From Bilabrum cf. latius (Eukaryota), in assembly GCA_965178125.1 (NCBI GenBank), contig OZ237739.1, forward strand, positions 372,001-436,000: 64,000 nt of DNA, read 5' to 3'. Positions 1-43,535 of this stretch are shown here, in pieces; positions within the stretch are counted from its first letter, which is position 1, and every line of letters begins with the position of its first letter. Made by a program: the position numbers and the translations under genes. The notes beneath the pieces are model-generated. The model did not search any database. It saw only the letters and a program-made list of their open reading frames with translations, and had not been told where the DNA came from.

Positions 1-3000
1 GCTGTTTGTACCCTTGGACTTGGAGGTCTGACTCCTCCACCGCAAAGAAGCCCGCCGCACCATGGCTGCCTGCTCGGCAACGGATGCCATCGACCCGTGC
101 GACTTGCCCGACACGTTCACGTCACCTGCACCGAAGAAGCCAGAGCCTGCCCCGACCGCACCAACTGCACCGGCTGGCGTGGTCCCCGCACCCGGTGTCT
201 TGGGCATCTTGGCGGCCATCTCCGCCGCCATCTGCTCCTCCTCGTCGGGGGCCTCGTGGTCAGCCTCCCTGTCCGCGTTGTCCACTGCCATCGCCACAAG
301 GTCAAAGTCCTCAAAATCGTCGTCGTCGCCATCGAGGACGATCGCGCCCTCTAGGTCTTGAGAGGCCAGCGAGCCACTCGCCACTGCCGCACTGCGGTCG
401 CCGTCAGCAGCGCCTTCAGGATCACGCTCTGGCACGCCCTCGAGACCCATGCTGCGGTCGTAGTCCTTCTTCAGCTCGGCCATCTCGTCCTCGTCGATGT
501 CGCCCTTGCCCTTGTCCTTCTCCAGGGCGTGCGTCGCGGCGCGCAGGTCGATCTGGCTCTGTCTCACCTGTTTCAGAAGGTTCGGTGCCACGTCACCAAC
601 GCTATGCTCGTTGGCGTCGCCGCTGTCTGTTCGGACGCGGTTGGCGATTGCCATGACAGCGGCATCCACATCATCGCCCTTGCCACCCTTGCCAACCTTT
701 TCTCCCTTAGCGTTGAAGCCCTCGGGCAGCACCTGGCTGCTGCGCTTGCCCTTGGAGGTATCCCCCCAGTTGCGGAAGAGAGGCAGACCATCGTGCGCCC
801 GGCAATCCTCAGTGTTCCAATATACCGTGATCGCAACACCCGCAGAAACCCAAATGAGCGTAGCAAGAATGACAATAACGTTGCTGTCATACTGCATGTC
901 ATTGTTCTCGCGAGACGGCAGCTCGCCGTCTTCGGAGAGATCGCCGACGTCAGGTGCATCTGCAGCATCGGGGATGGCCACGTGTGTGATGAGCAGAAGC
1001 CACGCGATGATGGCTGCGATCACAATCGGCAGGCGGGCAAGGTCGTGCGCGCGCTCGAACGGCAGGGGGTTCTTCAACCACGTGGCGATCGCCAGTGCAG
1101 TCAGTGCCAGCGTGCCGATGATGATTGCAGCCAGCAGCGACCTCGTCTGCAGGATCACGCCGCACCACACCACGGTCACCATCGCAGCTGCCAGCATCAG
1201 GACAAAGGCTGGCTTGAGCTGCAGCTCCAGGGCCCACTGGTTGACGGCCTTGAAGCGCTTGGCCTCGGCGATGCGCGCCTCGGAGTAGCGCGCGGTCTGA
1301 TCCTCGTTGGCGCGAGTTGCCTCGGCCACGATCAGTCTCTGCTTCACATCCATTGCCTCCCAATCCTCTTCCCGCTCGTCCCTGCGCATGCGAACGCTCA
1401 GGCCCCACGCCAGCGTGGGGATAAACAGGATCAGCGCGACCGCAGAGAAGAACACGCCAGTGATGTGCTCCCCGGTCCAGCACGACACCTGCTCGCACAG
1501 CCCCTCGGTCTGACGGAAGGTACCGAAGGGAAACCCGCACGTCCAGATCTGCATGAAGATGATCAGCATCGGCACAGGCAGAATCAGCAGGATCACGTAA
1601 GCAACGAACACGAAGATCTCCCACAGGAAAGGGTGCATGATGTCGCGGCCCTCCTCAGGCTGCGTGTCTGACCCCTGCGAGTCGTAGCCGTCTTCCTCAG
1701 AGTCCGTACCGGCGGCCTCTGCCTGCCTTGTCTCGTCCTGCGCGTCCGAGTCCGTCGATCCCAGGGACTGCATCCGGCTGCTAAACCCTGCGTTCGTCAC
1801 ACCCGTCATGCCAGTCACGCGGCTGAATTCCGAGTCCTTTCGGCCCTTGGCACCCCTGCCTCCCGTGGTTCCATCCTGCTTTCCACCCCAGCCTGACCCG
1901 CCCTTTTGGGGTGAGTCCAGAAGCGACTTGCCGTCGAAGGGATTGGCGGGACGATCCGCCTCATCGTCGGCATCATCGTCCTCGTCTTGCGAGTTGCTGC
2001 CCTCGGTCCTCATCTTGCTGAGCATGTCGGCCACGGCGTCTGTGCCGCCGGTGCCCGCGGGAGTGGCCTGGCCGTCCATGCGCGAGCCCGACGCAGTGCC
2101 ACCAACCCCGGCAGATTTGCCTGCCTCCGCCTTGTCGTCCTCCGTGTCATCATCGGTAAAATCCGAGCCTTCGTCGTAGTCCGAGTCAATCACGTTGCCC
2201 TGGGCGTCCAGGGGCTTTACTTTTGGCTCGTCAGAGTCAGTCTCGATGATCCCCCAGCCGTTCTTTTCGTCCTCGATCGACTGCCTGCGACGGCGCTTCT
2301 TCTTCTTCTTCGACTTCTTGTCTGCCTTCTCTCCCTTGCCCTTGTCGTCGAAGGCTTCCTTCTCTTCCTGCGCGGCGGAAGCACCAGCGGCTGTTGCTTC
2401 TACGTCTCTGGCCTATCTATCACCCTTCTGCGACTTGCCGAGCTCTGCAGCATTCTTCTTCTTCTTCTAGCGGCGCCTCGCCCGCGCTGCCTTTCGGTCA
2501 GATGGGGCCTCCACATCGGAACCGCTTTCGCCCTCCTTGTCCTCCTCGTCCTGCTTCTTGCGCCTGCGCCGACGAGGCTTCTTCTTCCGCTTGCCGGTCT
2601 TCCGCTTCTTGTTTTTCTTGTCCGACTTGCCAGCATGGCCCGGTTTCCCGCCAGCCGCTCCGCCGTCGTCACCCGCCTCCTCCGTGCTGCCTCCAGCCTT
2701 CTCCTGGCTGCTAGAGCTGCGGGATTTCAGCGCGTGGTACCCCGTTTGGTCCGCCGATGGTGGCACCGACTGAAGACCACGCGGCACGGCACCTGCTCGT
2801 CGGCTTGTAGACTGCTCCTCGTCGGAGTCCTCGTCAGAGGACGACTCGATGTCTTCCCCGTCCTCATCTTCCTCCCCCACCTTCTCTCGACGCTTGTAGG
2901 CGTGCACGACATCGAACGAAATGACAAACATCGCAAAAATGGTCAAGATGATGAACAGGACAAAGAACATCAGGTACGTTTCGTAGTTCCGCAGCCCGAG

Positions 3001-6000
3001 CAGAGTGAATGTCCTGATGGTGGCCTTCAATGGCACGTAGGTCAGCCAAGGGATGCCCTCGTGGAACAGTGGTGCTGCCAGCAGGAAGGCCCAGAGCACG
3101 AAGGCCGTGATCATAAAGATGTTCCTCCAATTGTAGTACAGCTGTTCCGTCGGGATGACCCACTCGTCAGGCTGCAGGTCGGTGTCTTGGTCGAACACCA
3201 AGTACAGCGCGAGCAGAACAGCAAAGACGATGGCGATGATCACCGTGAGCATGATGATTGCAGTCGTCTGCTGGTCCGAGGTATCCGCACGCAAAACGAG
3301 AGATAGGCTGAGTCCTTGGTCTGCCTCATCACAATTTTGGTCGATCAAAGCAGTGATGAGCTGCTGCTACGCTCGCTCCGTGCACGTCTGGTTGGCGCAC
3401 AGCCGTGTCTGCTGTAGCTCAGGGCACTCCTGCCCGCCGAATTGCGCTGGTACAAGCACGGGCCGAGTCCTGTTTTGGTTGCCACCGTCGCATTCGGCGC
3501 TGCAGTTGCCGTATGCGGTCCAGTTGCCCACAACGCAGTCAATCGGGCAAGGCTGTTCGTTGCACGAACGAGAGTCCTCCAGAGCCGGACAGTCCAGGGC
3601 CCCGTAGGCAGGATACACCGTAACGTTGCGGGTCCTGATCTGCGTCCCGTTACCGCACTCCAGGCTGCACTCACCCCAGCCACCCCATGCCGACACCTGG
3701 CACTGCTGCAGGCAGTGGCCGGTAGCACAGCCCTCGGGGAACGACGCGCAGTCAGCGGCCTGACAGAACGGATTGTCAAAACCAGGATCGCACTCGCACT
3801 GCCCGCCACCGGTGGCCGTGCATACACCGTTGCCGTTGCACATGTCAGCTGGTGCCGCCTCCGTGTCACATGTACAGCATGAAGGACCTGTCCAGCCAGG
3901 AGCACACTCGCACTGGCCGGGAGCAGGCGACGTGATGCTTGCGCAGCCGCCATTGCCACTGCACGAAATCGTCACGTCGCAAATCACGCCCACACTGGTC
4001 ACAGCAGTGCTCGTGACCGTCCGCCTGAAGCTGCGTGCTCCGACTGCGGTATCCTGCAGCTGTGTCGAGTGCCACTGCAAGAAGAGGTTGTGCGGGATCG
4101 ACTGGCCAGGCTGCACCAACGGCTGCACCTCGGCCGGCGCGATTAGTGTGACGATATCGTTCTCAGACACCTCTGGCATGAGGAAGCTGAGCACGTCAAA
4201 CTTGGGCTCAGCGGATTGTTGTCCCAGTGACAGGTCCAGGCCTGAGAGTACCTGGGCTCGCCTGCGCCCTCCTTCTGCACTCTACGAGATCGGGACGGCC
4301 TTGCGCGCGTCTCTATCAAACCGAGCCAAGAGCTGGCCAGTCGTGGGGTGTCGCGCCATACCGTCTGACAGCAGAGACCTGGCGATTCTGGACCCTCCAA
4401 ACTCTTCAATTAGTCTTCTCGAGCTGCCGTTGCTCGCCGGGGGCAACACGTTGAGCGAAGAGTTGCCAAATCCAGGGAAGTTGCCGAGATCCGTCGTGTT
4501 GTACAGATCAACGAGATCTTGCAAGGTCAAGTTCTTGGCAAATTCGGCCGTAACGTTCAACCGCTGCCCACCCAACGACCAGGTTCCGTTGCTCGATGCA
4601 ACAGAGGCATTCCCGGATGTGGTGTTGAGAGGACTGCGGTCAAGGCCAAGGTATATAGACGTCTCGTTCACGTCAATGGAAATGAAGCCACCTGGCACGA
4701 TCACAGCCAGTGTCACATCCTTGGCACTGTTCGTCAGGTTCTGAATCTGCGGCACAACATCAACAACGATGTCATACTTTTCATCAGTAGATATCTCGTC
4801 AGTCGGGAACCTGTCCACCGGCATAAGCTCCAGCGGCTCGAGCACAACGAGATCCGCAGAGAGTGCCTCCGCCGTCACTGGGGCGGTACCCACGCCAGCG
4901 AAGGTTCCTTTGACCGAGACCGTGTCACCTGACTGCACGCTTGCAGACACGAACGTGCGTAGCACGCCCGTTATCTGATCTGGTCTGGCGTTGTCCGTTC
5001 CTGCATTCAACACAGTGCACAAAGGTACTGTGACAAGGCTGCCTGTCGATGTCGAAGTCGCGGCGAGGGCTGTCGCGGGCAGTCCGCCGGCGCAGCTTGA
5101 AGTCACCGTCGCATTCGACGACATCGAGACTACATCCACAGGAACGAGCAGCCCAGGTGGGTTCAACTCGAACCGCAGCGTGGCGTCCAGAATTGTGGAC
5201 TCGGGCACAGTCGCCACGACGTACACATCAACGGTCTGGCCTGGCACCAGCTTCTAGTCGTCAGGAGTCTGCGAGCTCGCGTCAATTCGTACTGCCACGA
5301 CGGGCTCTGCAATCACAAACTGCGGGTCTGCACCCACGGTACCTGCAACGGAGCCGGCAAGCGGGGCGACCGCGATTGGTTGGGTCCTGTACGTCATCGC
5401 GGCGTTCGGGCGGATGGTGGAGCTCGCCTCCGCGGAATGCGTGACGCGCGCAATTACGCGAATTACTACCGTTTCACCGAGATCAATCGTCGGGATTTCC
5501 GCGACCAAGCCGCGGCTGGGGTCCACAGAGACGTCCGTCCTCGCGAAACTTTCGTTGAATACAAGGCCTCGTCCTTCCACACGCACCTCGACTAGCTCAA
5601 AGAGCGGGCTGTTGTCGAAGGCCAGTCCGGTGCCATCAACGTAGCTGTCATCCGAAATCGCCACATCGTGCATCTGAGATGTGGATGCAGCGTCGTGCGT
5701 AATCGTGACCGAATATTCTACCAAGTCACCGGCATCCACCGCCACTGCAGGTGCCGGTGAAGTACGGGCCTGTACCACCGTTGCAGCGACCGGCAGCACG
5801 TACGTGACGGTTGGAATCGCAACCGTAATCTGACCGGCTGGCACAAACCTGGAGGTCAGATTCACGCTGCCACCTCCTAGCCTGTGCCCCGGTAACAGAG
5901 ACGGCAAAGTATCAATCTCAACGAGGACATTCACTTGGAGTGTCTCGGTGGTGTAATCCTGTCCGGAATTGAGCACACGTCTGCTAGAAAAATCGACCGG

Positions 6001-9000
6001 GGCCGATACTCTTCTCCAAGCCGCAGGACCCTGGTTGTCATCGTCTGAGTTTGTGATGTTGCACAGGTGAATTGAAGCTTGGCGACCGGAGCCTGACGTT
6101 TGCATGCTCAAAGCTACCGCCTCCCATGAGCCACACGAGGATGACAGCAAGGGCGAGTTCGGCTCGATCGAAGCACCTATGACCCTAATTGGACCAGCAG
6201 CAAGCTGTACAGAAATATCAGCAAGCTCCAGTCGTCCTTCTGGAAGAGCGATATCGAACGACACGTTGAAGCGCTACCCTGCTGCAAAATCTAGTGTGCC
6301 AGGCGTGGTGTCTCCAGTGTCAATGTCAACGCCGAGAGCTGGAGATCTGATCCCTATCGAAGGGTTCGACGAAGCTAGGGTGGCATCAACGGTAGCCATC
6401 TTGTCCTTGGGGTGGCTTCCGAACTCCACTTGCAGCTTCGGGCTCAGCGTGAAACCTCCTGCGTCAGGGCCGCTGCCGGCCTGCACGTCAGTCGTCAGCT
6501 TGATCACGTATTCCACCTTCAAGTCATCGCCGACTGGCAATGGCCCTAGCAGATTCAAGATGCGCACATCCTGCTGGCTCGGATCAACCGACTACCTTGT
6601 GCTGCTATTCCGCAGGTAATGCACAGTGCCATTGATGCTGACACTCACCACTTCGTACTGCCCCACGCCAAGGGTGTCGTCCGACACAATGACGGAGTAT
6701 GCAGCCGAGGTGGACCTCAGATGGTGCGAGATCGTGAAATTGTACTCGATTGTATCCCCTGCATCCACGTTGGCCACTGCTCGCGGCAGCACCTCGAAAG
6801 CGTCAAGCTGAGCCACTCCAATGTCCGCACTGGCTGTAGAGGACAGCACAACCACGCCTGATGAGCTTGGGGTTGGCAGACCAGGAGCATTCGTAGTGTA
6901 CGCCAGAACCGATGTGTCACTTGTGTAGTCAAGGGACAGGTCGACCGTCTAACCTTGCACGCTGCTGTTCGAGCTCGAGAGCACAGTAGCCGTGTATACG
7001 AGTCGCAAGACATTACCTGGACCGCTGGCATTCAGGTTCCGGCTGTTCCTCAAAGACCCAATATTTACGGCGAATCCAGACAAAGTTGGCCCGACCAGAC
7101 CAAGAGAACCAACCAGTTGGTTCAACTAGGCTGCATCCACGGCATCTAGATCGTCATCGAGTGAAGTCAAATCCGAAGCAAGCACAGCTGGGGCATCAAA
7201 CACTGGGACCCCAGGCTGGCCATTGCTCAAGGCAGTTCCCGCTCCCTGCATCGACCCGCCCGTCGCTGTGATGGTCCTGTTGGCGTTGTCAACTTCCACC
7301 AGAGTGAAGTTGTACAGCAGTCCCGCCGGCACAAGCGAGACGTTGATAAGCCCGGCTGCAGAGATACCCTCGGGTACGATGATGTCTACGGTGATAAATA
7401 AACTCGATCCGATGGCAGCAACACCGTCAATGCCAGATACGCCGTCATCCGAAACGGTAACGGTTGCCTGAGGGGGCTTGACCTCAATTTCGTTGCTAGG
7501 AATCAGCGGGGACGAGTAGTTCTTGCGGGACTCTGAACTGCCCGCGGGAACGGAAGACCACGTCACGCGCGTAGCCGGACTCACCACCGAGCCAGCAACA
7601 AGCAAGGCACCCATCTAGATCGTATACTACACATCCAGAATTTCGCCCGGAAGCAGGGCAGGGATCACCACAACCCCATCGGTGCCAAGCAGCGGGTCTG
7701 ACTCGTTGATCGGCTGGAGCACGCCATCGATTCGCACTGTCAGGTTCACGACGGAGTACACTCCAGTCACCGACACCGGGTCTCTGATAACGATGTCGTA
7801 CGCTGGCACGTCCGCGCCCGTGTTGTTCAGCCCAACATCAATGCTAACAAGGTCGAATGCATCGACTCTACCCTGGGGATCGGCGCCGCCACCCGAGGCT
7901 TTCGTTGCCTATACGACTGGCGTGGACAGCTCCGACTCGATCAAGGTGATACCATCAGAGACAAAGCACCGCGGTGCCTCCAGACCAGTTTCTACGGTCG
8001 TATTCAGCCTAAGTGTGGACCCCGGGCTCAACTCAGCCAGCGAAGAGTCGCTCACCACCCGTGCCACAAATACAAACTGGACGAGGCCTGCACCATCCGG
8101 AGCGCCAGAGCTGACCACGAGGGGGCAAGAGGAGAATCCAGTCACCTTTCCAGCCGATGATAAAGTCTCAGTTCCAATCAGTTGATTGAGACTCAAATCA
8201 GACTCGGTTGCATTCGCTTGCGGCTGTTCAAGGCCGCAGAATTCGTAGCCTCCGCGCGTCTCCGAGCGCCGAAGGACTGCCTCGCTAGCCAGCTCTACGG
8301 CCGATTCGTTGTAGATAATCCTATCTAGCCTGAATCCATCCATGAATCCAGGACGAGACGCCTCGAGAAGCACGGAAAGGTTGGCAGAGATGCCACGCGG
8401 AAGATCAATGGAAACCACATGCACTAGCTGCTGGCCAAACGTGGCTACCAACGTAGAGGCAGTCAAGTTGTCGCTTCCAAGCGTTGCATCAACAGTGGAA
8501 CCCCGGAGCGAGCCTGCAGTCTGGTTTGCGACCTGCTGCAGATCATCAAATCCAGGGCCAGGATACACGCGGGACTGCTCGCCAGAGCCCGGGTAGTCCC
8601 TCCAGGTTCCATCAAGACCACCAGGGTGCAGCGTGCGAACGTCCGCTTGCTGAACTGTACCAACCCCGTTGGGATGCGACGAGTATCGGACGCCAATACT
8701 GGTCTTGATCGGTTGGTTTGGCTGCACGTGTTGCTCAACGGCATACGTGATTTCGAATGGAGTGTCGTCCGAGACGGCCAGCTCATCCAGCATAAACAAA
8801 CTACCGGTGCCAATGTCAGTGCTGTAGTTTGACCTGTAGAAACCTGCGACTTCGGAGAAAACCTCGACTCCACCCAAAACTACACGTACAACCCTGAGTA
8901 AAGGATTCGTCCGGTTGAGTGCCTCGTCGAATAGCTCAATGCCAAATGCGTTGCTCGTCGAGTTGCTTGTGTGATCGATGGTGCCAGTCACAGCAAATCT

Positions 9001-12000
9001 ATCCCCAGCCTGGAGCTGGGACAAGTCTTGGCTAGTCACCAGGACCACCTCCTCGAGCTCTGGCTCCACGATTTCGAGTACGTTGATTCCTGACGAAACT
9101 GAGCTGCCGAACGAGACGCCTTGCCCAAAAGAGGCAAATTTAGCGGTAGCTGTGATGTCTGCACCAGCTGCAACCTGCGAGTCATCTTGCACAAGCGCTC
9201 TCGTCACAACTGTCAGCACGCCGGGAGGCACTGCCCCGTTCTACGTTCCGGCGTTGTTACGTAACGTGCACATAGATACGTTGAATACACCTGTCGTAGT
9301 GTCAAACTGAGATTCTCGCCTTAGAATGGCAGCTGTGAGCGGCTCCTCAGCCCCACTAGCAACGCCGCATAACATCGTGTAGTTGCCAGAGTCGATTTCA
9401 AGGGTCACAACACTTGCGTTGAGTAGGCTGCCGCTCGGACCGAACACAATCGAAAGCGACGCGTTGCCATACGTACCCGCTGGGAGCACCATGGTGGAAC
9501 GTACCTCGACTACGCTGCCCGCAGTTGCACTTGACGTAACGCCATTTCCGCCCAGTGTTGCGATAGTCGTATTCAGCTGTGAGCCCAGCGTAGCCACGGT
9601 GGGATTCTCGTCGGCGAGTGCTGTGTACGCCCGGGATAGCGGTGCGGCCGCCACACTCTGGTACCTGACACGAATTTCCGGCCGGAATACTGACGGCAAA
9701 GCTGCGGTGGTCAGGATTCGAAGCGACACTCCGACATCAAGCGCCTCTTCCACTGCCAGTTCGTCCAGCTCAATGAGCACCGTAGAGTCGCTGATGTTGC
9801 CGACAATCCGAGCCGCGCTCATGTTCGCTGTGGAGCCAACGAACTCGTAGAACTATCCAACCAAAGGACTTGCATCGAAGAGTTCCACAGCATAGGCATT
9901 ACTTGCCGATGCAGAGTCATGCAGCACGGAGAGGTTAAAGGTTATCACGTCACCGGCAGCCAAGTCGCTGAAACTGAGTTCGTCAAATGGACTGAGCCGC
10001 AACGTGGGCTCCTGCACCGTAAGATTACTAGACACAGATGATACCGACTCGGTCGCTGCACCTCCGAGCGAGTCGAAGGTAAGGTTCATCGCGACGCGGT
10101 ACTCATCAGATGCTGTCGACCCGTTCCTGTTCAGCACTAAAAGAGGGATCGAAATCTCGATGAACTCCAGGGCTGTGTCATTCACATTTGCGTTGATGAC
10201 ATCTCCCAAACTGATTGATGCGGTGAGACCCCCATCGCTGGTGACAAAGGCAGATGCGATTGCCTCCAAACTGCTATTGCTAGTTCCAATCTGCACGTCA
10301 GCGGCAAAGGAAGTGATCACTGGCCGGATGCTTGCATCCAGTAGCCCGTTCGGAGCGCCGATGGCATCCACTGGACTGCCAGCAGACAGGTTCGCCGAAA
10401 GTCCGGCAAACACAGCAAACTGGTTTGGAAGAATTGCAGCCTCCAGCACCACGTCACTGAGTCGGCCCTGGGGCACACGGACCCGCGCGGTGACGTACGC
10501 AACGGAGCCGATACTCGCAACATCTAAGCTCCTGCCATTGTCCCGAGAAGCTTCTACTCGAGCAAACACGGCGGGTGCATCAATGCCTTCCACGGCGGTT
10601 GAGAATGTAACGTTGGGCCCGGCTCGCGTAGCTACGTAGTCTCTTGCCCTGCCAGTCGCGGGGTGCGTAAAGAACCGTACCAAAGGAGCAGTCTCAAACG
10701 ACGAGTATAACAGAACGTCAGGCGTAAATTCAACGATATACTCCACCTACACGAGGCTCTTGTTCGCGGGCAAACGATCGATGGTTCCAAAGACACCATC
10801 TGTACCGGAGCTGGTCAAAAACCTCAAACCACCAGTCGAATTCAACGCGATGTCCACGCCGTCCACGCGAAGTGCGACAACGGTATACGGAGCTGATGCC
10901 CCCAACAACGTAGAATCAACTAATTGAACTCCAAACGCATCCGATGACGCCTAAAGACCAGCGGTAACGTTGAAAAACACAGAAACCCTGTCGCCACCTC
11001 CTACGGTCGTCTCTAAGGCAAACGATCCAGATTGATCCAGTTCAGGCTATCGTACAATGAGAGTCTCGTTCTAAACAACTGGTGCACCGACAAGAGTGCT
11101 TGCGTTAAGGGTGGCAGTCAAGATTGAGACCACGTTACGAGACACTACCGACGCATTCAGCACCAGCAGCTCCACCACCACCTCCACACGCTCGTCCGTC
11201 ACACCGTCGTCCACTCCGCTGTTCCGCACATCCCCGAGACCAATCGTTGCAACGCCACTCACAGAGTCTACCACGCTGCCGCTCACCAACGCGCCAAGTG
11301 CAACACGCGTGCCGTTCGACAACGTGCCGCTCAGCACACCGCCTGACCCACTGCTGGGGCTCACAGACACCACGCGCTGCACAGACACCACGTCAGGACG
11401 GCTCACGCTCACGGACAGGGACGCGCCGTACAGCGTGCCCTCAGCCACTGACAACGACACTGTCGCCAACACCGTCTGGCCTGCCACAATGTCCGTGTCC
11501 ACCACCGTCGCCGTGTCCGTCGCAGTCGTCAGCACCATCGACGGACCAGGCACGCTCACCACTGGATCCGATGCTGCCGCCTCGCTGTAGTTGCGGCCCC
11601 CGCCGTACTCGCTGCCCGGATGAGAGCTGTACTGCACGCGCACCGCCGGCACAATGTCATCCGACGATGACACCTCGTCCGTCAGTCGCACGCGGTACAC
11701 CAACACAGAGCTGTCCGAGACCACAGGAAGCACAGCCCACTCGCCATCGCTGCCATGACCAGACACAGACCCGCTCACCCCAGACTGGTACGTCGTCACG
11801 CCATCCACGCGCACCTCCTCCACCACATAGTCACGACCAGGCAGAGTCACGTCCCGCACACGAGCCTCATACGCAGGACTGAACGTCGCGCCCTGAGTCG
11901 CGTTCAGCACCACTACAAACTGAGCCACATCCCCGCCATCCGCCACCAGCGTCAACGGACTCACGCTCACGCTCAGCTCGGGCTCCTGTAGCACGATCGT

Positions 12001-30000: not shown

Positions 30001-33000
30001 CCCTATCACCACCTCAGTGTCAAGCGATGTCGCGCCGTCCGTGGCCACACTCTAAGACACAGTCGAGCGGTCGATCGACACCACCGGACGCGCAGCGTCC
30101 ACCTCAGTGTAGTTCCGAGGCAATGCCCCGAATGCAAACACCGGAGCCTCTATCGCAGGATGCGACTGCCAGTTCACCTCGAACGACGGACGCACATTGC
30201 CGTCAATCTCCACGCCCGGAAGCAGCTCAAGCTACACCGCCACGCTTGTCACAATGCCCTCCTCCAGCAAGGACACAGTGCCCACCAGACCCCGAGACTC
30301 CAAAGCCGTAGCGAACGGTCCCGTGTCCCCGATCTGGTACTGCGTCGTCGGCACACCGTCCACAGTCGTCACCACGCTGCGCACCCGATACTCCTCCGAC
30401 GACACAGCGGCCGTCAGACCAGAGTCCACAAACTCCAGGTTGTACCCCGCATTGTCATTCGAGGCAGACCCCGCTGTGGATGTCAGCGTGTACGTGATCA
30501 GGTCATACGAGTCGCCGGATACAGGAGATCGACTCACACCCAGGCTCACCACAGGCTCCACCACAGTCATCACAGCCTGCTGACGCACATCGCCGCTGCC
30601 CACCTGCGCGCTCAGCACATCAGTCCGCAACGTGAAAGTGTCTCCAGCCTCAGGTGTGGACCCATCCACAAACGTCACATACGCCTCAAGCACCACTGTC
30701 ACCGTCTCGGCCACGGAGTTGCTGTCCGTCACCACTACCACATCGCCGAAGGTCAGCCGAACCAGATCACGGTCCGCCGCGAAGAACTCAGTCGGCACCA
30801 AAATGTCAGTCGAAGGGATGCCGGTCACCGTGAACGCGCTGTCGTTGCTCGTCGTCACCACAACATTGTCCGTGAAGTCGATGAAGTTCGCCTGCACCGA
30901 CGACACCTCCAGCCTCAGGTTCGACGAGGTGCCCTCAGGCAGAGTCATGGTCGACGTCACAAGCACGCGAGACCCTATCACCACCTCAGTGTCAAGCGAT
31001 GTCGCGCCGTCCGTGGCCACACTCTAAGACACAGTCGAGCGGTCGATCGACACCACCGGACGCGCAGCGTCCACCTCAGTGTAGTTCCGAGGCAATGCCC
31101 CGAATGCAAACACCGGAGCCTCTATCGCAGGATGCGACTGCCAGTTCACCTCGAACGACGGACGCACATCGCCGTCAATCTCCACGCCCGGAAGCAGCTC
31201 AAGCTACACCGCCACGCTTGTCACAATGCCCTCCTCCAGCAAGGACACAGTGCCCACCAGACCCCGAGACTCCAAAGCCGTAGCGAACGGTCCCGTGTCC
31301 CCGATCTGGTACTGCGTCGTCGGCACACCGTCCACAGTCGTCACCACGCTGCGCACCCGGTACTCCTCCGACGACACAGCGGCCGTCAGACCAGAGTCCA
31401 CAAACTCCAGGTTGTACCCCGCATTGTCATTCGAGGCAGACCCCGCTGTGGATGTCAGCGTGTACGTGATCAGGTCATACGAGTCGCCGGATACAGGAGA
31501 TCGACTCACACCCAGGCTCACCACAGGCTCCACCACAGTCATCACAGCCTGCTGACGCACATCGCCGCTGCCCACCTGCGCGCTCAGCACATCAGTCCGC
31601 AACGTGAAAGTGTCTCCAGCCTCAGGTGTGGACCCATCCACAAACGTCACATACGCCTCAAGCACCACTGTCACCGTCTCGGCCACGGAGTTGCTGTCCG
31701 TCACCACCACCACATCGCCGAAGGTCAGCCGAACCAGATCACGGTCCGCCGCGAAGAACTCAGTCGGCACCAAAATGTCAGTCGAAGGGATGCCAGTCAC
31801 CGTGAACGCGCTGTCGTTGCTCGTCGTCACCACAACATTGTCCGTGAAGTCGATGAAGTTCGCCTGCACCGACGACACCTCCAGCCTCAGGTTCGACGAG
31901 GTGCCCTCAGGCAGAGTCATGGTCGACGTCACAAGCACGCGAGACCCTATCACCACCTCAGTGTCAAGCGATGTCGCGCCGTCCGTGGCCACACTCTAAG
32001 ACACAGTCGAGCGGTCGATCGACACCACCGGACGCGCAGTGTCCACCTCAGTGTAGTTCCGAGGCAATGCCCCGAATGCAAACACCGGAGCCTCTATCGC
32101 AGGATGCGACTGCCAGTTCACCTCGAACGACGGACGCACATCGCCGTCAATCTCCACGCCCGGAAGCAGCTCAAGCTACACCGCCACGCTTGTCACAATG
32201 CCCTCCTCCAGCAAGGACACAGTGCCCACCAGACCCCGAGACTCCAAAGCCGTGGCAAACGGTCCCGTGTCCCCGATCTGGTACTGCGTCGTCGGCACAC
32301 CGTCCACAGTCGTCACCACGCTGCGCACCCGGTACTCCTCCGACGACACAGCGGCCGTCAGACCAGAGTCCACAAACTCCAGGTTGTACCCCGCATTGTC
32401 ATTCGAGGCAGACCCCGCTGTGGATGTCAGCGTGTACGTGATCAGGTCATACGAGTCGCCAGATACAGGAGATCGACTCACACCCAGGCTCACCACAGGC
32501 TCCACCACAGTCATCACAGCCTGCTGACGCACATCGCCGCTGCCCACCTGCGCGCTCAGCACATCAGTCCGCAACGTGAAAGTGTCTCCAGCCTCAGGTG
32601 TGGACCCATCCACAAACGTCACATACGCCTCAAGCACCACTGTCACCGTCTCGGCCACGGAGTTGCTGTCCGTCACCACCACCACATCGCCGAAGGTCAG
32701 CCGAACCAGATCACGGTCCGCCGCGAAGAACTCAGTCGGCACCAAAATGTCAGTCGAAGGGATGCCAGTCACCGTGAACGCGCTGTCGTTGCTCGTCGTC
32801 ACCACAACATTGTCCGTGAAGTCGATGAAGTTCGCCTGCACCGACGACACCTCCAGCCTCAGGTTCGACGAGGTGCCCTCAGGCAGAGTCATGGTCGACG
32901 TCACAAGCACGCGAGACCCTATCACCACCTCAGTGTCAAGCGATGTCGCGCCGTCCGTGGCCACACTCTAAGACACAGTCGAGCGGTCGATCGACACCAC

Positions 33001-36000
33001 CGGACGCGCAGTGTCCACCTCAGTGTAGTTCCGAGGCAATGCCCCGAATGCAAACACCGGAGCCTCTATCGCAGGATGCGACTGCCAGTTCACCTCGAAC
33101 GACGGACGCACATCGCCGTCAATCTCCACGCCCGGAAGCAGCTCAAGCTACACCGCCACGCTTGTCACAATGCCCTCCTCCAGCAAGGACACAGTGCCCA
33201 CCAGACCCCGAGACTCCAAAGCCGTGGCAAACGGTCCCGTGTCCCCGATCTGGTACTGCGTCGTCGGCACACCGTCCACAGTCGTCACCACGCTGCGCAC
33301 CCGGTACTCCTCCGCCGACACAGCGGCCGTCAGACCAGAGTCCACAAACTCCAGGTTGTACCCCGCATTGTCATTCGAGGCAGACCCCGCTGTGGATGTC
33401 AGCGTGTACGTGATCAGGTCATACGAGTCGCCGGATCCAGGAGATCGACTCACACCCAGGCTCAGCACTGGTTCTACTAGAGACACAGTGAAGCTGTCGG
33501 TAACGTCAGTTGGTCCAAGTATTGAGGACTCAAATCCTGCACGTACATCAAGGGAGTCGCCGGCGCCTGGCTGCGATGCTCCAGCATGCTCGACGAATCC
33601 CTCGATCAGTACAAAAACGAATACTGTTGGCACCGGGGCGGAGTCGTCAACATCGATTCTGCCGAGAGAGACAGTCACCTCCTCGTCCTAAGTGACCACG
33701 TTTAAAGATGTTGATGCAAACGAGCCAAGCGTAGTTGAGATCGCGCTGTCATTGGAGGTGGTGACGCTTATCAGGCGTGTGAACTGAAGAAAGTTCTGCG
33801 CGGATGCCAGTAGCCGAACCGCCGCACTCGAGACTCTCCCTTGGGGTATAGCGACCGATACGTTGTAAATGACCCGGGATCCAATCACAACCTCGCCATC
33901 AGATGCGGTCGCAACGTCGGTTGTTGCAACGCAAGCAATGGCTGGTTCAAGAATACTCCAGGTCGGCTGACTTGGAGGTGTGGCCACCAGGTCGACTGCA
34001 CCCCCATACTTGGCGTTTGGATGCGTCCTATATCCAACAGTGATGCTGGTGGCCTGCGATGGATCTGCTATCTCTACATCCGGGTCGAGACGGACGGAGT
34101 AGTCAACCTACGTCGCATCTGGCACGTCCAGCAGGCTGTCTGTAGCGATTAGGCCAGTAGTCTAGTAGTCCGACGCAATCACGGGGACCATAGAGTTGAT
34201 GAGCAAGCTCTCGAGGTCGTACTCGCTGGGGATGACGATGTTGGTGTCGCGGATCGTGATGTTGTAGCCAATTCCATCACTGCTGCCGGAGTGGTCCAGG
34301 TCCAGCTGAAACGGCAACACGTCTCCGGCATCCCGTTGACCAAATGCAGTGGATGCAAAGGCTGCCGTCACAGTGGGGAACTCATACGTTGTCGAAGCAA
34401 CCGTTGTAGTCGATCCTGACTCGTCGGAAGTGAGCGTCGCTCGCAGCTGCACAGTGTCCCCCCTGCTGCTCGCTGTTGAAGCCGTTCCGAAGAATTCAAA
34501 CCGGAACTTCACGACCTCTGCCACGCCGTTGTTGCTGTTCCTATTGCGCAACTGGCAAAGGTCGACCACATAAGGAGAGCTTGAAACGCTTCGCCCTGAC
34601 AGCCCGGCAATCACTCCGGTGCAGCTGCTGGACATGCCAGCGGCACTACCAGAAGCCATCGACACGCTCTCGAAGGCCCCAAGATCTACCAAGGACCCGA
34701 AGCTGAGAGCTTCAATGGTCAACTATAGGTCCGTCGTGTTGCCCTCTGGAACTGTCACGTCAACATCAACAGTGATGGTGGAACCGCTTGTGAACTTGTT
34801 CGTCGCTGTCGAGAATGGATCGGTCGTGACAGCTAGCGTAGCGCTTAGCTCGGCAATTGTGATGGAAATCTGGCTTGCAGGTGTTGCAGTGTAGCTTCTC
34901 TTGTAGTCAGGACCTGAGGCAGGTGTTGGATGTGAAGCGTAAACCAGCTGCGCGTTGGCTGTCACGCTATCACCCGCCTCCACCCCATCTACCATCTGCA
35001 GGGTGTACACGATCGTCGTGGAATCGGAAAGCCCAAGCTCGCTGATTCGTACGATCACGCCATCGCTGGCTGGCGAGTAACCGTTCGGTGAGGCCGTAGA
35101 GAACTGCTGGACGCTGTCCACTACCACCTCAATGAGCTCGTACCGAGCCCCACTACCAACAAGCTGACTGTCGCTTAGCTCTAGCTCGAAACCCCGAGAG
35201 TTTGAGTTACCTGTGTGCGATACTTCAGCAGTGACGACGACATGATCTCCCGCATCGATGAGGGTCACGTCACTCGAGCTCGTTGTCGTGATCTGCAGCT
35301 CAGGCTCAACGACGTCAAAGTTCATGTATTCGATGGTGAACGTGTTCGATGACGTAAATACCATCCGTGAGCGCAGTCGTGTGAAGTCGCCGTCTTGAGA
35401 TTCGGTACCGGCCTCATCCACGCTGGCCTCAATCACGATCGAGGCGGTCACATCGGCCGTCGGCGGGCCCGTGGCTCCTGCATCCACGGAGAGGGTGCCA
35501 AAGTCGAAATCTACCCTGTCTAGGCTCGGAGTAGAGGTTGCGTTGGATCCTATTACAAGACCACTGGACGACGAAATAGCGCTACCCATGGACTCAATGT
35601 GCGCTGACTTGATGACGAAAGCCCGGTTTGGCCGCTGGGTCAATAATCGCACGGAGAAGGGAAACCTGCCCTGGGGGAACGTGTAGGTGCCACGCATGAC
35701 CACTGTCTCACCGACCGCCAAGTCATCCCGCCCATTCTGATGTCTGTCATCACCAGTGGAGGCTAATGATGTCGAAACGATGTCGAAGGTGGAAGTGGGA
35801 CGAGCGATATCGACCGACACGGAAGGGGAGCTCACTGAGAGGACTTCAGAGAAATCCTCGTCAAAGTACGGCGCTGTGTTCCAAACCGCAGAGGACTGAA
35901 TGATCGCGCTTTGATCCGGCTCGTTCGTCGGTCTGATGATCAAGTCAATATTTGCAGTGATCGTGTCTCCGTCCTTGAAGGGCTCGTCACAGTCGTACAA

Positions 36001-39000
36001 TCGAACAATGAAGTACCCCGCGGTCGGCTCCAGTTGGTGCATGGAGCAGTTGGCGGTTTCGGCGAAGTCACCTTCCAAACTTGTCACAGTAAGGTTGGTG
36101 TAGAATCCAGCGTTATAGCTGAACGTGATGTTAAGCGGGTCCCACGCGGGCTGGTCCAAGTTCGTCGCCGAGTGAGAGATCCCGAATCGCGCCCCTACAG
36201 TGTCGTAACCCTGCAAGTTTACAAACGGCCCAGGGATCGTCGCGGTTGTGTACTGCAGGCTAGCGTCCTCGGCAACCTCAAAGCTCACAGTAGATGTGTC
36301 TGCGGTAATCCACTCGCCAGCACTGCCGCTCGGAAGATCGCGCTGAATCTCCAGAGTACCAACTAGAGCCAGGTCAGTGGGGCCAGCGTCGTCAGCCAAG
36401 CCAACAAACCGGACATCCGCTTCAAAGACAAGCTCATCGTTAGCCGACGCAACATTGTCGGCCAAGTTGGTGACCTGGTTCACGCTGATGCTCCCGACGC
36501 CAGGCAAAGCCCCATTGATGGCAGTAGCTGCTCCAGTCACCTGGAGGGATGCTCCTGCTGTAACCAGTCGCAGCGGGCTCACGACCTGGAACTAGTCCGT
36601 CACCCCAGAAAAAGCCACTGAGGTCACATTGAACCTCATGGCACCAGTCCGGCCTTCGGGCACCTGAACAGTGAACAGCGCGGTGAGGCCTTCGCCGTCC
36701 GCAACCTGAGGAGGGACCGCGCTATCCGATGTGAACGGGTTGTCTGAGCTGTCAGGCTTGAAGCTGATCTCTGCCCCTGGTGCCACCATTACAACTGACG
36801 AAGTCGAAATCTCATAGGGCTCCAGGGCAGCTTGCACAACGTAGTTCGGACCGGACGACACTGACCGGTACTCGACGATCTGGCAGGTAACGTCGAATGA
36901 CTCGAGAGAGGAGTTGCCAGACGGCTGCACCCCTGGCCCTACAGGGATGTCAAACGTAGCAATGATCACCTCCGTGGGATCACCCCCTCCAGGCACACCG
37001 ATAATCTCATCGTGAAAGATAGTAATGTTGCTAGAGGTAGCATCGGAAGTCACACGGTAGGATGACGTTGCCGTCACTGCTACCCCATCGCCGCGTGCGA
37101 AATGCACATTCATGTCTGTCTGCGGTGGGTTCACAATGCTGGACGTAGTTGATACGTTGAAGCCGTTTGGATCCAGGCCATCGCTGAACGCCTCGATCCT
37201 GGGCATCTCGCAGTTCACCACGATGTTGAGTCCCTCAAAACTACCGAGGTTGCCCACCATCACTGCGAGCGTGACCACATCGCCGGCGTCCACATTGCGA
37301 ACCGCCGTGCGAAGGCCTGCCTCCTGCGTGTCATCCACGTCAAAGGTGGTAAGGGCGGGCCAGCGATACCCTGGGCTACCAGGCGCTGTCACAAGCCCCC
37401 ATGGCGCACCAAGAAAGTCGCTAGCGCTGGTGATTGGGTGTACCAGCGGCGTGTAACCCGAGACGGTGTTCCCGGCTGCGATCAGAAGTGCCGCTGTCAC
37501 GGCCACGTCAGGGTTCAGCACCACGCTGAATACCTGCACCGAAGGCTGCGTCACCGTGCCGACCTCGTTTGACAGAGAGAACGAAGCGACCTGCAGCCCA
37601 TCGGTGATTCGAACCGATGACACTGTCATGGTGTAAAGGAATTGCACCACCACGCTCGGCGCATCGATGTCCCGGAATCCGCTGGGCCACTCAAACGTGA
37701 TTTGCTAGGAAGCCACGTTGTAAGTCACAGCAGGCAAGATGCCCGTCGCATTGTAAAAGGTGTCGTTGGGTCCGACCTTCATGCGGTCCGGAAGCGGTGG
37801 ACGCACGGTGCCCGCGTCCACCGGAAGAAAGCTCTCCGCGTTGTTGTCCCTCAAAGTGCTGATGTCAAAGATGGGGAACGGCGGCCAGATCGATGTCGTC
37901 AGACCCGCGAAGGAGTTGAACGGCAGCGTGTACAGCACGGAGTACGTGGCATTCCGCCCCGGGACCAGGTTCTCCGGCGGACATGGGAAGCACACAGCCT
38001 CGTTGATCGCGTAGAGATCATGTTCCAGCGTACCAACTACGAGCTGGATGTTGGTGCCTGCACCGTCCTGGCCTTGCCGGAAGGAGCTGCAATTCGTGTA
38101 GAAACCGGTGCCGGCCGGGCTGTGGTCGACCGCGGCAGGGTCGCACACCGTCGCCCGGACATTGTGGCCGTGCGAGATGGAGTCGGCATGCACAAGGAGC
38201 GAGCCATCCTGAGACCTACGGTTGATCTCAGCGTCATACGCGACCTGACAGGTGCTTCCGTCCAGCCGGATGGGCGCGGTGGACAGGTTACCCACAACTT
38301 CGTTGAGGAGGGCGCTCATGTCGAGCGTCACGGCGATCGACTAGTTTAGCACTCGGAAGCCTCCCGCCGGGTCAACCTCCGGGGTCGGGCTCAGCGTCAT
38401 GTGGGGCGAGGTGAAGTTCACGCTCGTGGGCGGCATCACCGGGTTGGAGTTGCCGCATTGCACGCGGAGCTCGTACGTGTCCGGGTCGATGACCGTCCCC
38501 GACGTCATGGTGATGGACACCAGCACGTCAGAATAGTTGAGGTACCCGCTGAACTCGAACGAAAAGGTGTTGGTGAATCTCACGCCCGGCACTGCCGGTC
38601 CCGCCACGACAGTGCCGGCGTACGCATCGATGGACTGCCAAGCCACATTCCGGGTGGCGTCGGCCTCATAAATCACCACTGTGTCGTTTACGTTTCCAAT
38701 AACCGTGCGGATGCCCGCCGAGATGTTGACGAACTCCACGAGGGCGCTATCAGAGAGCCTGTTGTCGTCTGCCCTGAGGGCCGGGATGCCCTCCTCGCTG
38801 TTGCCAAACTGGGGGATGAAGAGGGTCAGTGCGAAGGAGAGAGTCTGCGCAGAGCCTCCCGCGGGTGCGGTGATGTTGTCTGCCCTAATGGTGAGCACGC
38901 TGTTGTTCACAGCAATGCCTACCCAGTCCTCGACATGGATGGCGGCTGCCTGGGTGCCGCCGGCGACCGCGTCGGTGACCTCCAGTCCAGGCGGTATCAC

Positions 39001-39956
39001 CATGGTCCAGGTGATGTCCTGGGCAAAGTATCCTGGCTACAAAAGGAATTGAGCCGACACTGTGCGGAAGTGGTCTGCAGATGGCACGGCCTGCCCGTTT
39101 CCTGCCGAGCCGCCACCCGCCGTCGTGAACTCGAACACCGTCGGCTGGATAGTGGCGACTTGCGGCCAGGCCTACACGTTTGATGAAGCTGCTCCGGCAG
39201 AAAAAGAAGGGTTCGGGATGAACTCGTCCGCGCCAACGCTGGCCCGCACGGTCTAAAAACCACCTCGAAGATAAACCTGCACAGGGTCGATGTCTTCATT
39301 CAGGGTGACGCCTTGCGTCACTTCCACTGGTACAAACTCCGGTGAAACACTGATGAACAACAGGAGGTATGAATACATCTTCCAGCCGGGCGGTCCGCAC
39401 ACAGAAATCAATCCCGAGGCGTTGCTTCGAACGAACGGATGATCAATGCAACCGTCGCCCGGCGGAAAGGTCCGCACGGCCGGCGAAATCGATCCTAGCA
39501 CATACTATCCGCTTGCATCTACTGATAGAGAGTCGATGGCGATTTCGGTGTTGGACCCCATCACCTCTTCAATCCTCGTGCCGTTCGGAACCACTGCGAT
39601 CGATAAATGAACAGCAATCACGAAACCTCTTGAGAATATTTGCCCAAGAACGTTGCAAAATGCGGGAAAGGGTGGTTGAATGTCTTCATTGTCTCAAGGT
39701 AAGGCATCAAATCGGCCATTTCAGGCAATACGTGCAGCCTGCAGGTCGTCACGTCGTTCAAGCCCCGCTCCTACTCACCGAAATCGATCCATGGCTCAAA
39801 CCCGATGCTGCTGCCCACGTTATCAAACTCAAAAACGAGATCAAAGCTCGAAAAGGGTGCATGCGAACCCTAACCACTCTGAAATGTAACTTGCGGAATC
39901 GGGCTCGCGGTCGCACATGCTGCAAGCAGAGCAGCGCTCAATGCGCCCAGTTGCAT
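1..39956 (-). CDS. Giant secreted, membrane-anchored adhesin-like protein 1 (>13,200 aa; C-terminus runs off the left edge): signal peptide, long Ig-like repeat array, EGF-like, 2x TSP1, multi-pass TM domain; requires TAG=Gln
   Basis: ATG at 39956 gives MQLGALSAALLAACATA-SPIP (signal-peptide-like). Exon 1 is 39956-39779, a GT-AG intron spans 39778-39594, and exon 2 runs from 39593 to <1. The main minus-strand ORF-track fragments from 39501 down to 3348 all share one frame. Every break I inspected (about 70) is a TAG, with sensible sequence continuing on both sides. The frame stays open to position 1. Confidence 0.88.
800..3265 (-). other. Multi-pass transmembrane region of giant gene 1 (~9 hydrophobic helices split by a ~400 aa charged K/R/D/E-rich loop)
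   Basis: Hydrophobic stretches include AIIMLTVIIAIVFAVLLALYLVF, IFMITAFVLWAFLLAAPLF, YLMFFVLFIILTIFAMFVISF, IFVFVAYVILLILPVPMLIIFMQIW, ITGVFFSAVALILFIPTLAWGL, FVLMLAAAMVTVVWCGVIL, LLAAIIIGTLALTALAIATWL, LPIVIAAIIAWLLLITHVAI and VIVILATLIWVSAGVAITVYW. Confidence 0.75.
3370..3985 (-). other. EGF-like repeats plus two thrombospondin type-1 (spondin-type) repeats in giant gene 1
   Basis: EGF-like: CSGNGGC...CECAPGWTGPSC and CNGNGVC...CECDPGF. TSP1: CQVSAWGGWGECSLECGNGTQIRTR and DCVVGNWTAYGNCSAECDGGNQNRTR. Confidence 0.9.
11165..14927. repeat. Displaced ~1.3 copies of the 2940-bp (980 aa) coding repeat unit of gene 1
   Basis: Sequence from 11165 recurs at 14105 (+2940). Segment 12103-14927 matches the copy starting at 17992 (offset 5889) almost base for base. 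Confidence 0.9.
17050..25728. repeat. Tandem coding repeat, period 2940 bp (980 aa), ~3 near-identical copies
   Basis: Matching ORF fragments and TAGs recur at 17992/20932/23872, 18409/21349/24289 and 19279/22219/25159. Confidence 0.95.
27164..33464. repeat. Tandem coding repeat, period 972 bp (324 aa), ~6.5 near-identical copies
   Basis: Equivalent TAGs at 27316, 28288, 29260, 30232, 31204, 32176 and 33148, an exact 972 spacing, with only scattered substitutions. Confidence 0.96.
39594..39778 (-). other. Spliceosomal intron (185 nt, phase 1) of giant gene 1
   Basis: Donor TTCG|GTGAGT and acceptor TTCATTTATCGATCGCAG|TG. Splicing restores ...EPWIDFVVPNGT... in frame with the 39501 ORF. Confidence 0.8.
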
Positions 39957-40202
39957 TCTTCGTCAAGCTTTCTGGATTAATCAAGTTGTTTTGGTAGCAC
40001 TCGGCGCAAAAAAAACTAGCAGAAGTCGCTTTGATCAGTACTACGGGCTATGAAAGAACCGGCTGCGTAGTTACCGAGGGAAACGAGAGAGAGAACCAAG
40101 TTGTGCACCACACTTGGTCGCAACTGATCGCAATTGAGCAGTGCTAAATATGTATTTGAAATACGCAGCCTCCGCTCCATAACTCCAACAGATATCCACA
40201 TT
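39957..40202. promoter_or_regulatory. Short AT-richer intergenic region between divergent genes (giant gene 1 / GH78); candidate bidirectional promoter
   Basis: Head-to-head ATGs at 39956 (-) and 40203 (+), with lower GC and an A-tract near 40010. No specific motif recognised. Confidence 0.4.
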
Positions 40203-43200: not shown

Positions 43201-43535
43201 ACCTCAACCAGAGGTCCCTGAGCGCCAGCCTGATCGGGCCGCATGGCACACCCGCAGTCCTCGAGGTACCGCTGCAGGGGCTTGCCTCGGTGCTGCAGCC
43301 TTCAAGCGCTTCAGACACGCCCCGGAATCTGCATGTGCGCGCGAGTCGCGGTGACGAAGTGATGACGCAGTGCGAGGTAGACCTGGACCGCGTGGATGGA
43401 GTAGGGCTAGCCGTGAGTCCCTCTGCCGTGTCATCAAGGTGCCATGGGGTTATCATGTCAGGTACTGGTGCCGTGCGAGTTGAGTCGTCTCTGCGTGGTG
43501 ACGCTCAATTAGCATTGACTGTACGAATGGCATGA
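40203..43535 (+). CDS. Secreted glycoside hydrolase family 78 (alpha-L-rhamnosidase-like), ~1110 aa, two in-frame TAG (Gln)
   Basis: Signal-like N-terminus MTLTGVVLLLFVPVWA. GH78 motifs FTYHGFKY, PEDCPTREKRGWMGD, TMWERW and SLDHP, plus C-terminal TARG*IRSSW. ORFs 40134-40550, 40614-43178 and 43290-43535 share one frame and are joined through TAG at 40548 and 43176. Ends TGA. Confidence 0.88.

Follow-up and report, generated by a model that had tools for sequence, protein, structure and literature searches.

A giant gene with TAG read as glutamine in Bilabrum cf. latius probably encodes a membrane-anchored surface fibril

The stretch of DNA analysed here, called the window throughout, comprises 64,000 nucleotides of contig OZ237739.1 (positions 372,001 to 436,000, forward strand) from assembly GCA_965178125.1 of Bilabrum cf. 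latius and has a G+C content of about 60%. Its largest feature is a minus-strand gene that starts at position 39956 and runs past the window edge at position 1. Inside the window it has 59 + 1 + 13,197 = 13,257 codons, 74 of them TAG, and 13,257 residues (1.38 MDa before glycosylation) is therefore a minimum for the protein. It is a single, genuine nuclear gene that is transcribed, in a eukaryote whose TAG codons stand for glutamine. A first reading of the letters, referred to here as the original prediction, had proposed a hidden surface protein of more than 13,200 residues, encoded almost entirely by a frame of about 39.6 kb with about 70 TAGs, and the size and layout found here agree with it. 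The features of the gene, in the order of transcription, are listed below.

Positions 39957..40015, minus strand: 5' untranslated leader; the spliced contig of sequencing run X5 ends at 40015, and there is no ATG within 39957-40015.
Positions 39779..39956, minus strand: exon 1 of 59 codons plus 1 base, starting with the ATG at 39956-39954 and including one TAG and a predicted signal peptide (MQLGALSAALLAACATA/SP); seen in the sequence, the list of open reading frames (ORFs) and spliced contigs.
Positions 39594..39778, minus strand: intron of 185 nt, GTGAGT...CAG, phase 1; absent from one contig each of runs X5 and X6.
Positions 1..39593, minus strand: exon 2, a frame of 13,197 whole codons in which TAG occurs 73 times and TAA and TGA are absent; the C-terminus is encoded outside the window.
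Positions 35257..39593, minus strand: divergent N-terminal head of about 1,450 residues, with no Pfam match (Pfam scan, homology).
Positions 4774..35256, minus strand: stalk of 31 tandem bipartite units of about 320 residues, each a DUF11-type domain A and a pilin-like immunoglobulin (Ig)-fold domain B (iterated hidden Markov model, alignment A1, structural model, fold searches, hhalign).
Positions 27158..33961, minus strand: array in which a 972-bp unit (324 residues) is present 7 times, 6 of the copies being 99.2-99.6% identical in DNA.
Positions 11022..25870, minus strand: array in which a super-repeat of 2,940 bp is present 5 times; each copy spans three units (980 residues), and the protein copies are 95-99% identical.
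Positions 3709..3987, minus strand: EGF-like Cys-rich repeats (EGF_Teneurin 23.1 bits, cut-off 24.3; Cys invariant in four of four homologues).
Positions 3364..3702, minus strand: two TSP1 domains (TSP1_spondin E 1.4e-30, TSP_1 E 1e-14, two stretches each).
Positions 2917..3261, minus strand: transmembrane (TM) helices 1-3; the conserved motifs here are NWRN and PLF..IPW (hydropathy, homologue alignment).
Positions 1618..2916, minus strand: mixed-charge loop of 433 residues, predicted to be cytoplasmic from the inferred topology (96 D+E, 80 K+R, net -16).
Positions 823..1617, minus strand: TM helices 4-9, where TM4 is followed by a conserved hairpin loop that bears Cys (TCxFPFG...C...CW; hydropathy, homologues, low-confidence model).
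Positions 1..822, minus strand: acidic, mixed-charge C-terminal tail with a net charge of -20, truncated where the window ends (sequence composition).

Over the 13,231 codons of the minus-strand frame 1..39693 there are 73 TAG, no TAA and no TGA, so that the search for in-frame TGA or TAA in the predicted gene came out empty. The remaining two minus-strand frames contain 651 and 486 stops (TAA/TAG/TGA = 29/116/506 and 30/48/408), and the openness of the 1..39693 frame is therefore far beyond chance. Exon 1 encodes a protein that begins MQLGALSAALLAACATASP and is joined in frame to exon 2 by a split codon (G in one exon, TG in the other), the first whole codon of exon 2 lying at 39591.

Public sequencing runs were compared with the gene over window positions 33700-40300. 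Spliced contigs of X5 and X6 (one each, from two studies) jump exactly 39594..39778, whereas a genomic contig of run X1 retains these positions. The borders read CT..AC on the plus strand and GT..AG on the gene strand. The short signal-peptide exon joined at 39591, as it had been predicted, fits the absence of the intron from the X5 and X6 contigs. The X5 contig is unbroken over 33700-39593, is joined to 39779-40015 and ends there, and the next X5 contig begins at 40189, at the start of a divergent rhamnosidase-like gene. Such a layout is the pattern of transcripts, though the run is labelled 'RNA? (probably DNA)' by guess. Over the range covered, which includes 10 TAG codons, the X5 contig has zero letter differences from the window; TAG is thus not edited away in these contigs. 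Run X7 covered the stretch only partially, with loose ends, and was not used. A single exon across 1-33700 is suggested by the uninterrupted frame and the regular domain periodicity.

Next, the meaning of TAG was deduced from homologues. The public protein P0010, an uninterrupted standard-code ORF of 938 residues from another assembly, is 89% identical (89.4%) to residues 10694-11648 of the giant protein and has Q at five of the five TAG sites aligned to it. The window also contains a Mago nashi gene. When TAG was masked as X, exon 4 of this gene aligned to the Drosophila and human Mago structures (E 8e-28), and in each of the three printed PDB alignments TAG coincided with two glutamines, those of VGRQELEI and YYLVQDLKCL. 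A conserved Q thus lies under two of the four aligned Mago nashi TAG sites. Alignments of the internal paralogous repeats favoured polar residues at TAG (K, Q, S and R over L), a signal dominated by composition, and the TAG sites of the rhamnosidase-like gene and of a Pus7-like gene fall in unconserved stretches. In the 18,638 codons of this gene and a second, paralogous giant gene in the window, TAA never occurs in frame despite 86 CAA, so it is apparently not a sense codon. TAG makes up 16-17% of the glutamine codons in both giants. All four gene ends visible in the window use TGA, which is never found in frame, and none uses TAA as a stop. Judged from these homologues, TAG is glutamine, which is the pattern of NCBI table 15 that the original prediction had recommended for translation. 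ARAGORN and Rfam gave no match on the window.

According to PMC11687900, organisms reported to have reassigned TAG alone to glutamine are Iotanema spirale, Protocruzia tuzeti and two phyllopharyngean ciliates. The likeness to table 15 organisms is that TAG is read as glutamine and TAA is apparently not used as sense here; the differences are DNA of about 60% G+C, a long contig and several intron-bearing genes. The portions of the literature on TAG/UAG reassignment that were consulted named no fitting G+C-rich lineage. The best relatives of the Pus7-like protein (fungal, animal and unnamed) are only 24-32% identical.

With the standard code, the frame 1..39693 falls into dozens of ORFs of 150-800 residues each. 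This is what would be expected if there were no single protein and TAG terminated translation, leaving small ORFs or a pseudogene; the mostly bacterial relatives of the repeats would similarly suit a region of bacterial DNA. Both versions are already contradicted and are hardly credible. Zero TGA and TAA in 13,231 codons needs selection on the whole frame, and TAG lies on conserved glutamines of Mago nashi and P0010. Bacterial DNA is also opposed by the spliceosomal intron, the TSP1 and EGF-like domains and the intron-bearing eukaryotic neighbours, Mago nashi and the Pus7-like gene. The splitting of the single gene by standard-code annotation had been foreseen, and such fragments are already public: P0010 comes from this gene, and P0149 (320 residues, 98.8%), P0027 (580 residues, 98.6%) and P0040 are pieces of the paralogue.

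A hidden Markov model iterated from one 324-residue repeat found 32 stretches in the giant protein and 13 in the second giant. The 32 stretches correspond to 31 full or nearly full units (residues 1480 to 11,600) and one partial unit at 940. Alignment A1 comprises 26 distinct units with a mean column identity of 22%, and the AlphaFold2 model built from it has two all-beta domains (predicted local distance difference test, pLDDT, 82; predicted template-modelling score 0.75). Foldseek matched the domain pair to the tandem Ig-like domains of PrgB, the C-terminal domains of antigen I/II, pilins and integrin alpha legs (E 2e-9 to 1e-6, TM-score 0.3-0.4). VIA-align placed domain B (146-312) on the middle domains of the pilins EbpB, LrpA, BcpA, RrgB and SpaD with Z 11-13.4 and a root-mean-square deviation of 2.3-3.0 over about 130 residues; for EbpB, LrpA, BcpA and RrgB the values are Z 11.8-13.4 over 128-137 residues. 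Domain B therefore has a CnaA/CnaB-type Ig fold by these scores (VIA Z 11-13.4; Foldseek E 2e-9), and the Ig-like repeats of the original prediction are supported by the model and both fold searches. For domain A, hhalign against 15 Pfam-delimited DUF11 segments gave a probability of 97.9% (E 3.5e-13, 101 columns), while a control with domain B against the same segments gave 2.3%. By this profile comparison, domain A is a divergent DUF11 domain that stays below the family cut-offs.

Among the units of A1, 14 have Cys in both column 331 and column 410, 12 have it in neither, and none has it in just one of the two. This paired presence and absence indicates a disulfide in domain B in about half of the units. 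Pilin-type lysine isopeptide bonds were ruled out as a general feature, since lysine makes up 0.3% of the ectodomain. A recurrent LPEGT motif sits within domain B.

The two arrays were overlooked by Tandem Repeats Finder, whose period limit is 500. It could be argued that the length of the protein is partly an assembly artefact, in which the 972-bp and 2,940-bp arrays were over- or under-expanded and the true length is off by several thousand residues either way. Array copies are 99.0-99.7% identical, and the copy numbers of the 98-100% identical repeats, hence the exact length, depend on the assembly alone. Moreover, the short-read contigs of two runs, X1 and X5 (Logan), both end about 293 nt past 33700, at the edge of the 972-bp array. 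On the other hand, no copy junction interrupts the frame, an array of similar kind is present in the paralogue, and unique sequence alone (the head, about 17 distinct units and the C-terminal module) gives about 8,000 residues. We regard an error of this size as unlikely.

The ectodomain contains 200 N-x-S/T sequons compared to 86.5 +/- 8 in shuffles, where the repeat copies are not independent, and 45% of all Asn is in a sequon. The dense sequons noted in the original prediction thus amount to about twice the expected number. The TM and tail part has 1 sequon compared to 3.0 expected. The ectodomain is also strongly acidic (net -847). These properties, together with the low lysine content and with repeats homogenised as in mucins and coat proteins, would suit a passive protective or lubricating coat, i.e. 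a glycocalyx or mucin-like brush for which the nine-helix (9-TM) module is just a firm anchor. No recognisable ligand-binding domain was found in the head by Pfam or by a PDB sequence search, and head region 480-940 has no PDB sequence relative at E ≤ 1. However, the head is conserved with bacterial giants: residues ~540-880 show 26-36% identity with the N-terminal regions of Thecamonas AMSG_11683 and several DUF11 giants. TSP1 and EGF modules are more typical of binding proteins, and an anchor conserved in four proteins, where certain motifs and a Cys hairpin are invariant, suggests more than anchoring. A coat is thus a doubtful explanation compared to a membrane-anchored adhesive fibril.

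The C-terminal module was predicted to consist of an EGF-like region, two TSP1 domains, about nine TM helices and an acidic tail. The TSP1 domains belong to their family by score, being well above the cut-offs (TSP1_spondin, PF19028, 105.8 bits compared to 41; TSP_1, PF00090, 54.9 compared to 21.6), and the sequence has WGGWGEC. The EGF-like part of the prediction stands less firmly, as a weak Pfam match below cut-off plus conserved Cys; in the paralogue, EGF_2 reached 18.2 bits compared to a cut-off of 22.1. Kyte-Doolittle hydropathy gave nine hydrophobic segments in a 3 + 6 layout, in agreement with the predicted number, and the tail is acidic as expected. An extracellular N-terminus and an odd number of helices would place the big loop and the tail in the cytoplasm and the Cys hairpin after TM4 outside. 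The NWRN, PLF..IPW and TCxFPFG..C..CW motifs are invariant in four of four homologous sequences. The 9-TM anchor is conserved, and no named relative of it was found.

A conserved multi-pass module raises the question of a mechanosensory or signalling receptor, with the fibril as a tether or antenna and the nine helices as a channel- or receptor-like transducer. Analogues would be polycystin-1, adhesion G-protein-coupled receptors (GPCRs) and the Ig-domain mastigonemes on a transient receptor potential (TRP) channel in Chlamydomonas. The invariant motifs and the large predicted cytoplasmic loops are consistent with this possibility. Atlas look-alikes of the C-terminus of the homologue P0018, with scores up to 0.77, include 'TRP C-terminal domain' clusters, which serve as a lead only. 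Set against these points, channel, GPCR, GAIN/GPS and PLAT families had no Pfam or NCBIfam match at E ≤ 0.01 in the giant or the paralogue, the model of the module is unusable, and nine helices match neither a 7-TM nor an 11-TM plan. We consider a receptor quite unlikely as the main role, and the adhesive fibril is still preferred.

The A1 profile was searched against 1.84 billion representatives and matched 1,852 proteins at E ≤ 1e-3 and 593 at E ≤ 1e-30. Matches reach E 1e-211, many relatives are 2,000-7,700 residues long with 5-20 stretches each, and the DUF11 giant proteins have 9-20 stretches per protein. Pfam was run on 19 of the 150 relatives listed, picked among those of 5,000 residues or less. 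DUF11 was present in 15 of the 19, along with GramPos_pilinBB, bMG10 and DUF7507, and two (P0115 and P0082) had a sortase domain; these 15 relatives are of bacterial type. Two others, P0007 and P0018, had a TSP1-like stretch below the Pfam cut-off. The last two had neither: P0130 matched no family at all, and P0011 had only matches to unrelated families, none of which covered a distinct stretch.

Only P0018 and P0007, out of 157 stored database proteins, matched the C-terminal module. With BLASTP against the paralogue, P0018 (3,319 residues) aligned over the EGF/TSP1 region and the TM blocks (E 3e-32 and 7e-23) and P0007 (4,424 residues) gave E 2e-19; both have 8 strong hydrophobic segments in the same layout. 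Named relatives of the repeats are Thecamonas trahens AMSG_11683 (P0020, 5,325 residues) and Cafeteria roenbergensis FNF28_03689 (P0076). Two further repeat relatives, P0078 and P0083, are labelled as partial proteins of bacterial metagenome-assembled genomes (Mesoflavibacter and Desulfobacteraceae) on contigs of 1.9-2.0 kb, and their binning may be wrong. The domain combination had been described as unrecognised. The repeats are now seen to be divergent DUF11-type plus pilin-like domains, and the full plan is also present in P0018 and P0007. The literature, as far as it was consulted, contained no description of a giant protist architecture of DUF11-like repeats and TSP1. The mixture of a bacterial-type stalk and head, eukaryotic EGF and TSP1 domains and a novel anchor suggests a chimera that may have arisen by cross-domain transfer followed by fusion.

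The bacterial and archaeal DUF11-repeat giants (PF01345) are homologous over the whole bipartite unit of about 320 residues and share part of the head. Unlike those giants, the protein described here has repeats that score under the Pfam and NCBIfam cut-offs, and its gene starts with a signal-peptide exon of eukaryotic type followed by an intron. It also differs in its sequons, its EGF-like and TSP1 domains and its 9-TM anchor, and it has no sortase domains or other bacterial anchoring devices. Gram-positive pilins, MSCRAMM and antigen I/II proteins (EbpB, LrpA, BcpA, RrgB, SpaD, SspB, SpaP and PrgB) have an Ig-like fold as in domain B, and their tandem domains resemble the two-domain unit (Foldseek E 2e-9 to 1e-7), forming a rod of serial beta-sandwiches. 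In contrast to the pilins, the giant is a single polypeptide and not a sortase-linked polymer, it has a 9-TM anchor and no LPXTG sorting signal, and a covarying Cys pair takes the place of the Lys-Asn isopeptide bond; sequence identity is 5-16%.

P0018 and P0007 share the full plan of repeats, EGF-like region, TSP1-like stretch and TM blocks, with one TSP1-like stretch each, under the Pfam cut-off. Together with P0020 and P0076, they are read with the standard code and are 3-4 times shorter, and none has a described function. Thecamonas P0020 and Cafeteria P0076 share the repeat unit, and P0020 has no TM segment. Polycystin-1, adhesion GPCRs and the giant bacterial RTX adhesins likewise place a very long ectodomain of repeated Ig-like domains on a membrane or cell-envelope anchor, which in polycystin-1 and the adhesion GPCRs is multi-pass with cytoplasmic parts. 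Compared to these, the giant has no GAIN/GPS, PLAT, PKD, BIg or RTX by Pfam, has nine helices in a 3 + 6 layout and bears no sequence relation to them.

From these data, the following arrangement is proposed. The signal peptide would direct the N-terminus out of the cell, so that the head of about 1,450 residues and the stalk of 31 domain pairs project from the surface. About 70 domains at roughly 4-5 nm each would give a fibril of about 0.3 micrometres. The ectodomain would be heavily N-glycosylated, with the EGF-like region and the two TSP1 domains adjoining the membrane. The conserved nine-helix module would hold the fibril, with its loop and tail facing the cytoplasm, and it may relay load or signal to the cell interior. 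Giant bacterial fibrillar adhesins act as long surface fibrils. Since bacterial fibrillar surface proteins are the nearest to the giant in both sequence and fold, its most likely role is adhesion to a substrate, to prey or to partner cells, and we place moderate confidence in this role. The explanation as a whole, a gene with TAG as glutamine for a giant membrane-anchored and likely adhesive surface fibril, is probably correct. Secretion, glycosylation, fibril length and adhesion are predictions within it. The results support reading the product as a membrane-anchored, sequon-decorated Ig-fold glycoprotein, as originally proposed, and nothing that was tested contradicted this.

Several points weigh against this explanation. 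The product is known here from the gene sequence and contigs alone, and the argument for adhesion comes solely from the resemblance to fibrillar adhesins. RNA support is confined to window positions 33700-40015 and comes from X5 and X6, which carry the label 'RNA?' by guess, one of them with 'probably DNA', and no run is recorded as RNA. For the code, the other two of the four aligned Mago nashi TAG sites face D and N, the N one in exon 2. The Pfam scan returned nothing in the first ~11,900 residues; DUF11 (PF01345) had no Pfam match at E ≤ 0.01 in four protein pieces, and NCBIfam TIGR01451 reached 13.9 bits on the repeats compared to a cut-off of 24 (E 0.042). The signal peptide was assigned by eye and the TM helices by Kyte-Doolittle hydropathy. 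AlphaFold2 of the 9-TM module, from a 4-row alignment, had a pLDDT of 42, with helices that coincide with the hydrophobic segments. The module also had no named relative in word-index searches for longer or near-length relatives, which is weak evidence.

A more ambitious claim joins all of these parts. The lineage would have acquired a stalk, along with some of the head, from a bacterial DUF11/pilin-type fibrillar adhesin and fused them to EGF/TSP1 and an undescribed 9-TM transducer (channel- or receptor-like), giving a one-polypeptide 'hair' of about 0.3 micrometres, in a host that is an unreported G+C-rich lineage with a nuclear code changed only from TAG to glutamine. That every part of this holds together is rather improbable. 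Giant repetitive Ig-fold surface fibrils and adhesins are a known type; what is notable here is the size, the hybrid origin, the 9-TM anchor and the use of TAG as glutamine. If made as predicted, the protein would be among the largest single polypeptides encoded by any genome. It links the bacterial DUF11/pilin-like fibrillar surface family to eukaryotic surface biology, as the flagellates Thecamonas and Cafeteria also carry relatives, and it defines a conserved 9-TM anchor of unrecognised fold. The nuclear code, with TAG as glutamine and avoidance of TAA in a G+C-rich genome, must be used in annotating this organism.

The other genes in the window are as follows.

Positions 47776..63999, minus strand: paralogous giant gene of at least 5,407 residues in the window, with 23 TAG, 13 units, EGF-like region, 2 TSP1, 9 TM and a complete C-terminus ending in TGA; the N-terminus lies beyond the window.
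Positions ~46870-47561, plus strand: Mago nashi gene, interrupted by three short introns (GT..AG) and containing TAG five times in frame (alignment to Mago structures).
Positions 43696-~46600, minus strand: Pus7/TruD-like pseudouridine synthase gene with long low-complexity inserts and one TAG (TruD E 8e-40).
Positions 40128-43535, plus strand: alpha-L-rhamnosidase-like gene of bacterial type with 2 in-frame TAG (Bac_rhamnosid6H E 1.9e-42).

The paralogue is 41% and 34% identical to the giant over two conserved TM blocks, and its repeats of 2,943 bp match one another at 99.7%. Both giants have the three-unit super-repeat in collinear order (11022-33961 compared to 57691-63576) with 44% identity, while the copies inside each gene are 95-99% identical. 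From these values, high within and low between genes, the three-unit module is older than the gene duplication. They also point to homogenisation or re-amplification of the copies since the duplication, which could have occurred by concerted evolution or recent independent amplification.

Some smaller observations were made on the neighbouring genes. The final TAG of Mago nashi stands immediately before the TGA stop (...CCG TAG TGA) and might be a final glutamine or, in that context, a stop. The rhamnosidase-like gene is divergent from the giant, and the gap of about 170 bp between them (40016-40188), which is uncovered by X5 contigs, is possibly a shared promoter region. The Pus7/TruD-like gene has an apparent upstream RG-rich exon (...GITSFLSSHRGIEGQFKC) and a short intron near 46302-46350.

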